Shown piece by piece: positions 1-4,456 of a stretch of 4,790 nucleotides of DNA; the first letter of the stretch is position 1; every line of letters begins with the position of its first letter. Both the position numbers and the translations under genes were made by a program. The DNA comes from a virus (Duplodnaviria > Heunggongvirae > Uroviricota > Caudoviricetes): IMG/VR virus record IMGVR_UViG_2693429601_000018. One strand, 5' to 3'. The notes beneath the pieces are model-generated. The model was not told the DNA's origin. It did not search any database and saw nothing but the letters and a program-made list of their open reading frames with translations.

Positions 1-1045
1 TAATACTGTAAAAATATCCAGTTGTGAGTTAATCAACGCCGACTGCCTGGAATTTATCCGGTCGTTACCCGAAAATTCTGTTGACCTGATAGTCACGGAC
101 CCGCCGTACTTTAAAGTGAAGCCTGAGGGCTGGGATAACCAGTGGAAGGGCGACGATGATTACCTGAAGTGGCTGGACCAGTGTCTGGCGCAGTTCTGGC
201 GGGTGCTGAAACCTGCCGGAAGTCTTTACCTGTTCTGTGGTCATCGCCTGGCATCTGATATCGAAATCATGATGCGTGAACGCTTCAGTGTGCTGAACCA
301 TATTATCTGGGCGAAGCCGTCCGGACGCTGGAACGGATGCAACAAGGAAAGCCTGCGGGCGTATTTCCCCGCCACAGAGCGCATTCTGTTCGCGGAACAT
401 TATCAGGGGCCGTATCGTCCGAAAGATGCCGGGTATGAGGCGAAGGGCAGGGCACTGAAACAGCATGTGATGGCCCCGCTGATTGCTTACTTTCGTGATG
501 CGCGCGCTGCCCTGGGGATAACGGCAAAACAGATTGCAGATGCCACAGGAAAGAAAAACATGGTGCCGCACTGGTTCAGTGCCAGTCAGTGGCAGCTACC
601 GAACGAAAGCGATTATCTGAAATTACAGTCGCTGTTTGCCCGGGTGGCAGAAGAGAAACATCAGCGCGGGGAACTGGAAAAGCCACACCACCAGCTGGTC
701 AGCACATACAGTGAGCTGAACCGGCAGTATACGGAACTGCTGAGTGAATATAAAAATTTGCGGCGGTATTTCGGTGTGACGGTGCAGGTGCCGTACACCG
801 ATGTGTGGACGTATAAACCGGTGCAGTACTATCCAGGGAAACATCCGTGCGAAAAACCGGCAGAAATGCTGCAGCAGATAATCAGCGCAAGTAGTCGTCC
901 TGGTGATCTGGTTGCGGATTTTTTCATGGGGTCGGGTTCAACGGTAAAAGCGGCGATGGCACTGGGGCGTCGTGCGATTGGTGTTGAGCTGGAGACCGGA
1001 CGTTTTGAGCAGACAGTCAGGGAAGTTCAGGATTTAATCGTTTGA
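1..1045 (+). CDS. DNA N6-adenine methyltransferase, beta-class (motif IV before motif I); 5' end lies upstream of the window
   Basis: The frame of the listed ORF 116..1045 stays open back to nt 2 with no in-frame ATG, so the true start is upstream. Translation from nt 2 gives ...INADCLEFIRSLPENSVDLIVTDPPY (DPPY motif IV, nt ~98-109) and, near the C-terminus, DLVADFFMGSGST (FxGxG AdoMet-binding motif I, nt ~910-950). The order IV...I with ~260 aa between them is the beta-class amino-methyltransferase layout. Stop TGA at 1043-1045. No restriction endonuclease partner is visible in the window. Confidence 0.9.
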   Translation, partial: NTVKISSCELINADCLEFIRSLPENSVDLIVTDPPYFKVKPEGWDNQWKGDDDYLKWLDQCLAQFWRVLKPAGSLYLFCGHRLASDIEIMMRERFSVLNHIIWAKPSGRWNGCNKESLRAYFPATERILFAEHYQGPYRPKDAGYEAKGRALKQHVMAPLIAYFRDARAALGITAKQIADATGKKNMVPHWFSASQWQLPNESDYLKLQSLFARVAEEKHQRGELEKPHHQLVSTYSELNRQYTELLSEYKNLRRYFGVTVQVPYTDVWTYKPVQYYPGKHPCEKPAEMLQQIISASSRPGDLVADFFMGSGSTVKAAMALGRRAIGVELETGRFEQTVREVQDLIV

Positions 1046-1094: not shown

Positions 1095-1170
1095 GGCCCT
1101 TTAGCTCAGTGGTGAGAGCGAGCGACTCATAATCGCCAGGTCGCTGGTTCAAATCCAGCAAGGGCCACCA
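1095..1170 (+). tRNA. ileZ: tRNA with CAU anticodon, Ile2 (lysidine)-type, usually auto-annotated as tRNA-Met
   Basis: Cloverleaf folded by hand: acceptor GGCCCTT/AAGGGCC (7 bp), D-arm GCTC-AGTGGTGA-GAGC, anticodon arm AGCGA-CTCATAA-TCGCC (anticodon CAT at 1128-1130), T-arm GCTGG-TTCAAAT-CCAGC, discriminator A and encoded CCA (1168-1170). Closely resembles E. coli ileX-type tRNA-Ile2 as I recall it; the symbol follows the phage 933W naming from memory. Confidence 0.9.
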
Positions 1171-1179
1171 TATCACATA

Positions 1180-1256
1180 CCGCCATTAGCTCATCGGGAT
1201 AGAGCGTCAGCCTTCGAAGCTGGTTGCGCGGGGTTCGAGTCCTCGATGGCGGTCCA
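1180..1256 (+). tRNA. argN: tRNA-Arg (anticodon UCG)
   Basis: Acceptor CCGCCAT/ATGGCGG (7 perfect bp), D-arm GCTC-ATCGGGATA-GAGC, anticodon arm TCAGC-CTTCGAA-GCTGG (anticodon TCG), variable loop TTGCG, T-arm CGGGG-TTCGAGT-CCTCG, discriminator T and encoded CCA (1254-1256). Symbol assigned only by gene order (ileZ-argN-argO) recalled from Stx-phage literature. Confidence 0.88.
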
Positions 1257-1269
1257 TTATCTGTACCCT

Positions 1270-1346
1270 GCGTTGTTAGCTCAGCCGGACAGAGCAATTG
1301 CCTTCTAAGCAATCGGTCACTGGTTCGAATCCAGTACAACGCGCCA
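1270..1346 (+). tRNA. argO: tRNA-Arg (anticodon UCU, reads AGA/AGG)
   Basis: Acceptor GCGTTGT/ACAACGC, D-arm GCTC-AGCCGGACA-GAGC, anticodon arm ATTGC-CTTCTAA-GCAAT (anticodon TCT), variable loop CGGTC, T-arm ACTGG-TTCGAAT-CCAGT, discriminator G and encoded CCA (1344-1346). Symbol by gene order from memory. Confidence 0.88.
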
Positions 1347-1360
1347 GACTTATTTTTCCC

Positions 1361-1386
1361 GGCTCGCTTTTGCGGGCCTTTTTTTT
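1361..1386 (+). terminator. Rho-independent terminator after the tRNA cluster
   Basis: Stem GGCTCGC (1361-1367), loop TTTT, stem GCGGGCC (1372-1378) with one G-U pair, followed directly by a T8 run (1379-1386). Confidence 0.7.
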
Positions 1387-1582
1387 AAATGTCTCACAAT
1401 TCAGACGGTTGACAGTTGTCTGTTTTGCGGGGAGTTTGTTAAAAGAAACTGGCATGGTGAATCCCCCTGTGCGGAGGGGCAATCAGCGAGTAGGTATATG
1501 GGATAATCGCGGATTCAGGTGCTGGTACTGAATTCACCGGGAGGCACCCGGCACCATGCAATGGCACATAGCGCCACTCTCC

Positions 1583-1620
1583 AGCCCCTCTCCGGAGGGG
1601 CTGTTTATATTGATTTTGTC
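1583..1620 (+). terminator. GC-rich hairpin with an interrupted U-rich tail; terminator-like or RNA 3'-end structure
   Basis: AGCCCCTC (1583-1590) pairs with GAGGGGCT (1595-1602) as an 8 bp stem around loop TCCG, followed by GTTTATATTGATTTTG. The T-tract is interrupted, so intrinsic termination is uncertain. Confidence 0.35.
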
Positions 1621-1637
1621 AGATGTGAGTAAACTGC

Positions 1638-1973
1638 TTATGGACTTTGTTGTTTTAGCCCATAAGGACATATTTGCAGAGTGCAACGGTTATTAAAGCA
1701 TTCATTCAATACGTTATCTGTATTTGTAGGGCATTCCTGGCTGTTTTTGATTAAATTCCAGAATGTTTTATTGAATGGTACTACGTTGTAAATGGTTACA
1801 GGTAGCACTTTGTTATTGAGCATGATGCCTGTGTGAGTCAGTGTAAATATACTTTCAGGAGGTAAGAAAGCATCCGATTGATACCAGATTATTAATTTTA
1901 TTTTACTCCATATGACTGAAAAAGATATTCCGCATGATGGCTGGATAACTGTATCAATCACAATCCACTTCAT
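1638..1973 (-). CDS. Hypothetical protein (111 aa) in the AT-rich island; possible moron gene
   Basis: Minus-strand ATG at 1973 preceded by AAGGAA with 5 nt spacing; stop TAA at 1640-1638. It is the only long ORF in a ~32% GC segment where stop codons should be frequent. Six of 13 Ile codons are ATA. Four Cys fall in the C-terminal 35 aa ([26 protein letters not shown]). No motif I recognise. Confidence 0.3.
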
Positions 1974-2233
1974 TTAGTTTCCTTGTTTATGCCTTGCTGG
2001 TGATGTTCTGAAAAGTATAAATGATATTTTTGATTGTAAACCATAGAGCAGAATTATTTTTCTGATGTTGTTTATTGTTTATTTAAATGCAGGGTGGTTT
2101 ATATCTCGTCTTGTAGTTTATCCATGCATATCTGCTTGATGATGAGGTTTTTATTTAAGGTATGGTTTTGTGTTTTTTCTGTATTACATGTCAGGTATTT
2201 TAAAGAATCATTTTTCAGATGGTGGAAAGAACC

Positions 2234-4090
2234 ATGGCATTTAAACACTATGATGTTGTCAGGGCGGCGTCGCCGTCAGATCTTGCGGAAAAGCTGACAC
2301 ATAAACTGAAAGAGGGCTGGCAGCCGTTTGGTAGTCCGGTGGCCATAACCCCTTATACCCTGATGCAGGCGATTACAGCAGAAGGTGATGTGGTCGTCAG
2401 TGGTGCAACTGAGCCGGATTGGTACTACGTCATCGTACTGGCCGGGCAGTCCAATGCCATGGCTTACGGTGAAGGGCTTCCGCTTCCGGATTCTTACGAT
2501 GCGCCCCACCCACGCATTAAGCAACTGGCCCGTCGCAACACAGTGACTCCCGGTGGTAAAGCATGCGCATTTAACGACATCATTCCGGCAGACCACTGCC
2601 TGCATGATGTTCAGGATATGAGCGCACTGAATCATCCGAAGGCAGACCTGAGCAAAGGGCAGTACGGCTGTGTCGGCCAGGGCTTACATATTGCCAAAAA
2701 ACTGCTCCCGTATATCCCGAATAACGCGGGGATCCTGCTGGTACCATGCTGTCGTGGTGGTTCTGCATTCACCCAGGGCGCTGAGGGGACATTCAGTGCG
2801 GACACGGGGGCCAGCCAGGATTCGGCACGCTGGGGTGTGGGTAAACCGTTATATCAGGACCTGATTGCACGCACCAAAGCGGCATTACAGAAGAACCCGA
2901 AAAATGTGTTGCTGGCGGTGTGCTGGATGCAGGGCGAATTTGACATGAGCGCTGCCACCTACGCACAGCAACCGGACCTGTTCACGGCCATGCTGAAGCA
3001 GTTCCGTACTGACCTTTCCGGATTTAACGCGCAGTGCCATGGCGGCAGTGCTGCAGTTGTACCGTGGATTTGTGGCGACACGACGTATTACTGGAAAAAC
3101 ACATACGGCACACAGTATGACTCCGTCTACGGCGCGTACAAAAACAGGGAGAGCGACAACGTTTTCTTTGTGCCGTTCATGACCGACGGTAACGGCAACA
3201 ACACGCCCACCAACTTACCGGCAGAAGACCCGGATATTGCTGATGCAGGTTATTACGGCGCGCAATCCCGTAGTAATGGTAATTGGGTATCGTCAAATCG
3301 TCCGACACATTTCAGTTCATGGGCGCGCAGGGGCATTATTTCGGATCGCCTGGCAACCGCTATTCTGAACGCAGTTGGTCGAACCAGCGCCTTCATCAGC
3401 GGTACCGCACCGGAGATTAAACCCTCGCCCGGCGGCGACACGCCATCGGGGCCGTCTGATGGTGACACATCCGTTCGTACAGTCTCCCTGCTGCCGACAG
3501 CCGGAGAGGCTGCTGCGCAGGGCTGGACCATCACCGGCGGCAGTGTTGCGCTGGAAGATGGTGTGTTTAAGGTTACCAAGCAGAGCAATAAAACCTGGTC
3601 CCTGATGCATCCGGTGGATGACGCAGTCTCCCTGCTGACACGGGGTGGCAGACTGAGCTGTAAGTTTCGACTGTCAGGCGCACTGACCAACAACCAGTTC
3701 GGTCTGGGAATTTATCTGTATACCGATGTAGCGTTACCTGACGTCGTGGCGATGACCGGGACTGGTAACCCGTTCCTGATGTCGTTCTTCACCCAGACCA
3801 CAGACGGCAAACTGAATCTGATGCATCACAAGAAAGCAGGAAACACAAAGTTGGGCGAGTTCGGGAATTACAGTAACGACTGGCAGACGCTGGAGCTGGT
3901 GTTCACCGCCGGCAGTGCCACGGTTACTCCGAAACTGAATGGAGTGGCTGGCCCGGCATTCCAGGTCATAAAAGACAGTCTGACACTGGGGCTGAATGCG
4001 CTGACGCTGACGGATATTACCAAAAATGCAGCGTATGGCGTTGAGATAGAAAGTCTGGTTCTGGAGATAAATGCACCGGCATCATCATAA
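2234..4090 (+). CDS. nanS: Prophage sialate O-acetylesterase, NanS-p type (N-terminal DUF1737-like domain, SGNH/SASA esterase domain, C-terminal beta-rich domain)
   Basis: ORF 2219..4090. The second in-frame ATG at 2234 (MAFKHYDVV...) has the better Shine-Dalgarno (GGTGGAAAG 5-8 nt upstream), whereas ATG 2219 has none; either start is possible. SGNH block I motif VIVLAGQSNAMAYGEG sits at nt ~2438-2470. Established knowledge (from memory): EHEC prophages encode NanS-p 9-O-acetyl-sialic acid esterases with this N-terminus immediately downstream of the stx position. Stop TAA at 4088-4090. Confidence 0.88.
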   Translation: MAFKHYDVVRAASPSDLAEKLTHKLKEGWQPFGSPVAITPYTLMQAITAEGDVVVSGATEPDWYYVIVLAGQSNAMAYGEGLPLPDSYDAPHPRIKQLARRNTVTPGGKACAFNDIIPADHCLHDVQDMSALNHPKADLSKGQYGCVGQGLHIAKKLLPYIPNNAGILLVPCCRGGSAFTQGAEGTFSADTGASQDSARWGVGKPLYQDLIARTKAALQKNPKNVLLAVCWMQGEFDMSAATYAQQPDLFTAMLKQFRTDLSGFNAQCHGGSAAVVPWICGDTTYYWKNTYGTQYDSVYGAYKNRESDNVFFVPFMTDGNGNNTPTNLPAEDPDIADAGYYGAQSRSNGNWVSSNRPTHFSSWARRGIISDRLATAILNAVGRTSAFISGTAPEIKPSPGGDTPSGPSDGDTSVRTVSLLPTAGEAAAQGWTITGGSVALEDGVFKVTKQSNKTWSLMHPVDDAVSLLTRGGRLSCKFRLSGALTNNQFGLGIYLYTDVALPDVVAMTGTGNPFLMSFFTQTTDGKLNLMHHKKAGNTKLGEFGNYSNDWQTLELVFTAGSATVTPKLNGVAGPAFQVIKDSLTLGLNALTLTDITKNAAYGVEIESLVLEINAPASS

Positions 4091-4174
4091 AAAGTGAGCC
4101 AGCCAAATGGAAGGTATCGTTAAACTCACCGGTAGTGTCAGTGGGTCGTCTGAGACGCCTGCATGAGTTATCAG

Positions 4175-4206
4175 AGCCATCAGTACTTAACTGGTGGCTT
4201 TTTTTA
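4175..4206 (+). terminator. Rho-independent terminator between the esterase gene and the holin
   Basis: Stem AGCCATCAG (4175-4183), loop TACTTAA, stem CTGGTGGCT (4191-4199) forming 9 bp with one G-U pair, followed by a T-run (4200-4205). Confidence 0.65.
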
Positions 4207-4240
4207 TTGTTGTCAGCTTCCGGATAACGGGAGACGGGGT

Positions 4241-4456
4241 ATGTACCAGATGGAAAAAATCACAACAGGTGTGTCATACACCACGTCAGCGGTGGGAACG
4301 GGCTACTGGTTCCTGCAGTTGCTGGACAGGGTTTCCCCGTCTCAGTGGGCGGCGATAGGTGTGCTGGGGAGTCTGCTGTTTGGCCTGCTGACGTATCTGA
4401 CTAACCTGTATTTCAAAATCAGAGAGGACCGGCGTAAGGCGGCGCGGGGAGAGTAA
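4241..4456 (+). CDS. S: Class II holin, phage-21 S-type pinholin (71 aa) with dual start (Met1/Met4)
   Basis: [71 protein letters not shown]: two hydrophobic segments and a charged C-terminal tail, closely matching phage 21 S21 as I remember it (...[14 protein letters not shown]...[22 protein letters not shown]). GGGAG sits 7 nt upstream of ATG 4241, with a second ATG at 4250. The listed ORF start at 4163 lies inside the upstream terminator and is rejected. Confidence 0.88.

Follow-up and report, generated by a model that had tools for sequence, protein, structure and literature searches.

What does a lambdoid prophage without stx carry in the interval where its Stx2-converting relatives carry their toxin genes? 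The question is raised by a 4,790-nt stretch of phage DNA (the window), in which a sharply AT-rich block lies between a set of tRNA genes and nanS-p. A preliminary description, made from the letters of the sequence, took the interval of ~830 bp to be the toxin slot, occupied in place of stx by an AT-rich insert (~32% GC across 1640-2218) whose cargo sits at a position used for highly expressed, induction-coupled genes. The answer that emerges from alignment, family searches and published transcript mapping is a different one: the AT-rich block, 1613-2220, is very probably a moron of a stx-negative lambdoid prophage that carries iraL, whose product acts by way of RssB to stabilise RpoS.

The backbone and the vacant toxin site

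The features of the window are collected in the table. Pfam and ARAGORN agree on the gene order that the preliminary description had read (methylase, three tRNAs, a gap, nanS-p, pinholin), and its assignment of this order to the backbone of Stx-converting lambdoid phages also holds. Positions 1-1387 align at 93.8% identity with the Stx2a phage Stx2_EH2246, the methyltransferase gene, which is a part of the late-operon backbone, being likewise 93.8% identical to the "DNA methylase" of that phage, and 944-1387 at 91% with phage 933W; on the right, nanS-p and the holin gene are homologous to those of both phages. The three tRNA genes correspond to ileZ-argN-argO in the 933W annotation, and the terminator behind them is, by alignment and by the 933W feature table, the "terminator upstream of the stx genes". 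The source element is a stx-negative lambdoid prophage of Escherichia; among complete genomes the best match to the window reaches 97.6%, and none of the loci retrieved is identical to it.

Features of the 4,790-nt window
Feature	Position	Strand	Basis and remarks
N6/N4 DNA methyltransferase gene, 3' 1045 nt	1..1045	+	PF01555, E=6e-38; start just upstream of window
tRNA(CAU)	1095-1170	+	ARAGORN (read as Met; ileZ-type), Rfam tRNA match
tRNA-Arg(TCG)	1180-1256	+	ARAGORN, Rfam tRNA match
tRNA-Arg(TCT)	1270-1346	+	ARAGORN, Rfam tRNA match
Intrinsic terminator after tRNAs	1361..1386	+	GGCTCGC-TTTT-GCGGGCC, then T8; terminator scan
Empty moron-CDS insertion point	1388..1389	.	1-1387 and 1390 onward flank the stx2AB cassette in alignments
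STnc100-family sRNA gene	1423..1612	+	Rfam RF02076, 133.6 bits (gathering score 47), model positions 1-206 (full length)
iraL CDS, 111 aa, RssB anti-adaptor of IraM/IraL/RssC family	1638..1973	-	Protein identity, NCBIfam
iraL 5' UTR	1974..2006	-	TSS at 2006 from published RACE; 32/33 nt identical to CFT073
Putative sigma-70 promoter of iraL	2012..2040	-	TTTACA 2040-2035; TATACT/TACTTT 2019-2012
AT-rich region upstream of iraL	2007..2220	.	GC 0.29; right end is the module's right breakpoint
nanS-p, phage sialate O-acetylesterase (DUF1737 + SASA + DUF6645)	2234..4090	+	Pfam
Class II (P21 S-type) holin or pinholin	4241..4456	+	PF04971, 111 bits, residues 31-93 of ORF 4163-4456

Two of the reading frames merit a comment on their starts. 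That of nanS-p is probably the ATG at 2234 and not the ATG at 2219 of the mechanically called ORF: the former (MAFKHYD) stands in an alignment column common to all the aligned phages, and the PGAP annotation of strain MLI109 begins at the equivalent of ~2233. (In other phages a GGAG-type ribosome-binding site precedes this ATG.) The holin frame has an in-frame ATG upstream, at 4163, but Pfam and PGAP favour the 71-aa product that starts at 4241; in MLI109, the corresponding place is annotated by PGAP as a "class II holin" of 71 aa. The shorter product begins MYQMEK, and the arrangement resembles the two-start holin/antiholin layout of P21-type holins.

The toxin site can be located precisely. 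Both 933W (over 944-1387) and Stx2_EH2246 (over 1-1387) match the window through the terminator that follows the tRNA genes, and from 1390 on the window matches sequence that starts, in the same two phages, just after stx2B. Since the left-hand match ends at 1387 and the right-hand match begins at 1390, stx2AB is inserted between these positions, and the point is empty here. The statement that nothing resembling stx is present is borne out: tblastn of the window with Stx1A/B and Stx2A/B yields a best E of 0.63 and blastn with the stx cassettes a best E of 0.23, both at chance level. In uropathogenic Escherichia coli CFT073 an insert of ~640 bp with a DUF3927 gene lies a few bases upstream of the stx point, at the equivalent of window 1360-1381 (L003:22567-23210). 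The region between the methylase or tRNA genes and STnc100 is variable in its own right, with the CFT073 DUF3927 gene at the stx insertion region, and in PPyecE_EH1910 (L005:2667-4265) the tRNA genes are replaced by a "plasmid stabilization protein", a transcriptional regulator and a TerB-like gene.

Immediately to the right of the vacant point lies a gene of the STnc100 sRNA family, with an intrinsic terminator hairpin of its own (1582-1603 in the terminator scan). It is a conserved element of the backbone, separate from the AT-rich module: RF02076 scores 102-208 bits in 933W, Stx2_EH2246, PPyecE_EH1910, 75/02 Stx, CFT073 and IMG/VR contigs, and in 933W, Stx2_EH2246 and Shigella phage 75/02 Stx the gene directly follows stxB, in agreement with a published report that puts STnc100 downstream of stx2, at a distance of 75 nt (PMC12370729). 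The promoter of STnc100 may include a TTGACA that is conserved at 1409-1414. In MLI109 and CFT073 the minus strand bears a pseudogene in the PGAP annotation, a partial "hypothetical protein" (window 1439-1567); it lies wholly within STnc100 and is probably an annotation artefact.

The drop in GC is confirmed by a sliding-window check (0.285-0.365 in 200-nt windows across 1601-2200, versus 0.49-0.61 in the flanks), but it does not extend over the whole interval. The module 1613-2220 has a GC content of 0.326, to be compared with 0.52 for the methylase, 0.556 for the tRNAs, 0.547 for STnc100 and 0.55 for nanS-p; the first ~225 nt of the interval, 1387-1612, hold STnc100 and are not AT-rich. The ~830-bp interval is no single unit: its right-hand part, 1613-2220, stands as an AT-rich block, and its left-hand part does not. 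Nor does the block occupy the toxin slot, which lies empty on the upstream side of STnc100 while the module lies on the downstream side. Judged from the alignments, the toxin genes and the iraL module enter the backbone at two different points, with the STnc100 gene between them. This correction of the layout, together with what iraL does to the general stress response of the host, is the main interest of the locus; the window itself, whose gene is known, annotated by PGAP and carried by roughly one complete E. coli genome in four, matters little.

iraL and its transcription

The AT-rich gene is iraL, already characterised and named in 2014, in its usual prophage context. All 111 residues of the minus-strand ORF are identical to those of CFT073 IraL (c1429; L003:23466-23801, in the potB prophage), and the cargo that the preliminary description had left without identity therefore is a protein already characterised (PMC4045071). 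The coding sequences agree at 335 of 336 nt, and window 1382-2453 as a whole is 97.9% identical to the potB prophage region. By a threshold of 95-96% nucleotide identity to CFT073 iraL and its upstream region, and by its iraL-type promoter and start site, the gene is the iraL allele as opposed to iraM. In CFT073, IraL acts on RssB as an anti-adaptor and so makes RpoS more stable during log phase (Hryckowian 2014, mBio, PMC4045071); it contacts RssB differently from IraM, and its gene lies on the potB island (PMC4045071). Family membership is equally clear. NCBIfam NF007393, "anti-adapter protein IraM", matches at 162 bits (cut-off 121) over its full length (1-110 of 114); the crystal structure of the IraM core (8TWD), the fold of which is described in bioRxiv 10.1101/2023.01.07.523045, can be aligned with residues 1-78 (E=9e-32); the protein is 62% identical to K-12 IraM; and the matching gene of E. 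coli genomes is labelled "anti-adapter protein IraM" by PGAP. (Pfam has no family for the 111-aa ORF.) The ratio dN/dS (Nei-Gojobori) is 0.17 both against the allele of Stx2 phages that is described below and against K-12 iraM, which places the ORF under purifying selection. Two small plus-strand ORFs, 1556-1696 and 2094-2297, have no Pfam family and are not preserved in the diverged allele, in which indels occur; they were rejected as genes.

[quoted passage not shown] The minus strand of the window between 2006 and 1975 agrees with this sequence at 31 of 32 nt, which places the transcription start at 2006 and gives a 5' UTR of 33 nt. The hexamers listed in the table as a putative promoter were assigned by their distance from the mapped start and are probably the right ones; one passage of the iraL study describes -10 and -35 elements near the sigma-70 consensus (PMC4045071). 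Three SNPs separate the promoter and UTR from those of CFT073: one at -2, one in the UTR and one at 2033, abutting the putative -35 element (2040-2035). Some copies of iraL carry a point mutation in the -35 element (PMC4045071). The terminator scan of the window detected no minus-strand intrinsic terminator for iraL. A bidirectional terminator shared by iraL and STnc100 was considered and is not supported, the hairpin at 1582-1603 having no T-run on the minus strand.

Transcription of iraL is driven by a sigma-70 promoter of its own and takes place in growing cells (PMC4045071). Directed against the late operon and active in growing lysogens from this promoter, iraL is not coupled to induction as stx is, and the expectation of an induction-coupled cargo has to be given up. 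iraL is a lysogenic-conversion gene, that is, a lysogen-expressed moron and not a late payload. The course of events in the source strain would be as follows. In the lysogen, the sigma-70 promoter would drive transcription of iraL from 2006 onward, opposite in direction to the late operon; the 111-aa IraL would bind the adaptor RssB, as the identical CFT073 protein does (PMC4045071); RssB so sequestered would no longer hand RpoS over to ClpXP, and RpoS would accumulate even in exponential growth, priming the general stress regulon. Upon induction, to go by the gene order, Q-antiterminated late transcription would read through iraL in antisense.

A site of many alleles between STnc100 and nanS-p

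Aligned with one another, the phages diverge after the STnc100 terminator and rejoin at the ribosome-binding site of nanS-p; the breakpoints of the iraL module fall at 1613 and 2220, between these two landmarks. The place is differently filled in different phages: the minus strand of 933W bears AsxR, AgvB is found in PPyecE_EH1910 and 75/02 Stx, and the window, CFT073 and Stx2_EH2246 have a module of the iraL/iraM type. Matches to AsxR and AgvB (RF02703 and RF02702) occur in 933W, PPyecE_EH1910, 75/02 Stx and IMG/VR contigs, and the window has none at E<=1. A census was taken of 78 IMG/VR contigs that carry a closely related nanS-p together with 900 bp or more of sequence upstream of it, a sample that is biased toward the nanS-p allele of the window. 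STnc100 is present in 77 of the 78, and the gap from it to nanS-p takes discrete lengths. A gap of 620-621 nt holds iraL, always antisense (33 contigs); one of 263-265 nt holds an anti-sRNA of the AgvB/AsxR type (20 contigs); one of 363 nt, in a single contig that also has stx, holds an anti-sRNA of the AgvB type; and gaps of 171, 180 or 232-233 nt (23 contigs) hold no known (Rfam) family. That the AT-rich block is a separately acquired moron (in the sense of Juhala and Hendrix), as had been proposed, is upheld by its presence or absence among related phages, by its sharp breakpoints and by its GC content of 0.326 against ~0.53. As to its being an autonomous transcription unit, the published RACE, mapped onto the window, supports a promoter and start site of its own, and the scan found no intrinsic terminator on the minus strand.

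CFT073 offers the closest comparison. Its iraL lies in the same context (Q, tRNA Ile/Arg/Arg, STnc100, antisense iraL, a nanS-p remnant, holin), but there the DUF3927 insert precedes STnc100, IS200C replaces the methylase and nanS-p is truncated, whereas in the window nothing occupies the moron-CDS site and nanS-p is complete. The stx2AB cassette of 933W and Sp5 shares the backbone (methylase or Q, tRNAs and terminator on one side; STnc100, nanS-p and the holin S gene on the other) but differs from the iraL module in its point of insertion (1388/1389 versus 1613-2220), in its orientation, which is opposite, in its sequence, to which iraL has no similarity, and in its expression, which is late and Q-dependent, that of iraL being driven in the lysogen by a promoter of its own. 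A third system has the same architecture as the iraL site. At the moron site of lambdoid phages, EcOnc27 and either AsxR or AgvB form a convergent sRNA pair (Tree et al. 2014, PMC4104026): the interval from the moron CDS to nanS-p holds an sRNA on the plus strand and, after it, an antagonist of a host regulator that is expressed in the lysogen from the minus strand. EcOnc27 is here equated with STnc100. The window departs from this pattern in having a protein-coding anti-adaptor module of ~600 bp in place of an anti-sRNA of 51-60 nt.

The allele of Stx2 phages brings the toxin and the anti-adaptor family together. Its product, 107 aa long, shares 72-74% identity with IraL and 66% with K-12 IraM; in Stx2_EH2246 the gene lies at L004:4475-4798, on the minus strand, directly downstream of stx2B and STnc100. 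In phages 2851, 1717 and Stx2_EH2246 alike it occupies the same site in the same antisense sense as iraL, the module as a whole, upstream region included, being ~73% identical in nucleotide sequence; it differs from the window in coexisting with stx2AB on one phage. It is found in all 17 records of Stx2c-converting phages, in phages 2851 and 1717 and in several Stx2a phages; of the 5426 complete E. coli genomes 236 have it, for the most part O157:H7/STEC. A gene of the iraM/iraL family and stx2AB occur together in 41 Stx2 phage records, where the former is mostly unannotated, and the literature search turned up no discussion of a gene of the IraM family flanking stx.

The 2014 study of iraL noted STEC with high RpoS in log phase but without iraL, in a survey by PCR and a BLAST criterion of at least 95% (PMC4045071). 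At ~73% nucleotide identity the third allele would probably have been missed by such a survey, and it may be an explanation for the raised log-phase RpoS of iraL-negative STEC. This third allele, travelling with stx2, could be the subject of a small follow-up. In the more general form that we offer tentatively, and consider somewhat less probable than its negation, the STnc100-nanS-p site would be a dedicated, multi-allelic place for lysogen-expressed antisense antagonists of host global regulators (the anti-sRNAs AsxR against FnrS and AgvB against GcvB, the anti-adaptors IraL and its relatives against RssB), and the stx2-linked allele may be a functional RssB anti-adaptor that accounts for the RpoS level of those STEC.

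Other readings, and the K-12 relative

The reading from which this analysis started, a segment that has taken the place of stxAB in the toxin slot and whose unknown cargo is highly expressed with the late genes upon induction, has understandable attractions: the flanking genes are those that flank stx in Stx2 phages, the compositional island is sharp, and late transcription from PR' must, by the order of the genes, cross the region. It is nevertheless very improbable. The toxin genes insert at 1388/1389, outside 1613-2220; the 41 Stx2 phage records with both genes show that one is no alternative to the other; the sole conserved ORF is directed against the late operon, from a mapped promoter of its own; and none of the plus-strand ORFs of the module is retained in the diverged allele, where there are indels. 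Still less credible, to the point of being nearly negligible, is that the segment is an ordinary spacer or a decaying, functionless remnant, its ORF an annotation artefact or a pseudogene. AT-rich DNA acquired by horizontal transfer is often silenced, and PGAP does put a doubtful "hypothetical protein" pseudogene over the neighbouring STnc100. The segment is also very common: of 5426 complete E. coli genomes, 1430 contain at least 80% of 1350-2250 (969 for the whole window at the same cut-off). But commonness is only half of what the preliminary description had said would count against a cargo gene, the other half being an ORF that is not conserved, and the ORF is conserved, with dN/dS of 0.09-0.17 across the three alleles. 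It is intact and identical to a protein of demonstrated activity (PMC4045071), its length of 111 aa was reached in only 4 of 2000 shuffles of the module, and its promoter and start-site region are conserved as well.

An iraL moron is compatible with a further proposal, namely that 2007-2220 holds an additional element (PhoP, H-NS or Fur sites, or a small RNA) tying iraL or nanS-p to signals of the host, which we regard as possible but rather unlikely. Upstream of the start site there are 214 nt of conserved non-coding DNA, 208 of them identical to CFT073 (97%). A PhoP-box-like direct repeat, TGTTTA-N5-TATTTA, with one mismatch, lies on the plus strand at 2069-2085, 63-79 nt upstream of the iraL start, with a counterpart, CGTTTA-N5-TGTTTA, at the aligned position of the Stx2-phage allele (L004:4894-4910), and a second promoter-like site on the minus strand lies at 2081-2053. 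Moreover, iraL mRNA is increased at 37 C (PMC12890032) and the level of IraL is raised in a fur mutant of CFT073 (PMC7157518). Against this, 147 of 200 shuffles match the PhoP motif at two mismatches or fewer, so that the repeat is not significant by itself; no Fur box matches at up to three mismatches; promoter-like sites are not enriched (2 found, 3.1 expected); and 2007-2220 has no Rfam family at E<=1. The region upstream of K-12 iraM has no PhoP-box-like match at one mismatch or fewer, and a PhoP box of iraL, statistically unremarkable as it is, was set aside as only a lead.

IraM (YcgW) of K-12 is an RssB anti-adaptor induced through PhoPQ at low Mg2+; it belongs to the same family as IraL and, according to the literature, has the same target, RssB. 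IraL, unlike IraM, is reported to be active in unstressed log-phase cells (PMC4045071). The two genes are homologous in their coding sequences only (70.9% at the nucleotide level), their flanks and promoters being unrelated, and K-12 iraM adjoins e14/icdC, with neither STnc100 nor nanS-p nearby. The thought that K-12 iraM is a relic of the same phage site was dropped: with homology confined to the CDS and no STnc100 in the vicinity, it cannot be shown. The IraM/IraL family itself is seemingly confined to Escherichia and Shigella, with relatives at 31-32% in Pseudescherichia and in one Enterobacteriaceae MAG.
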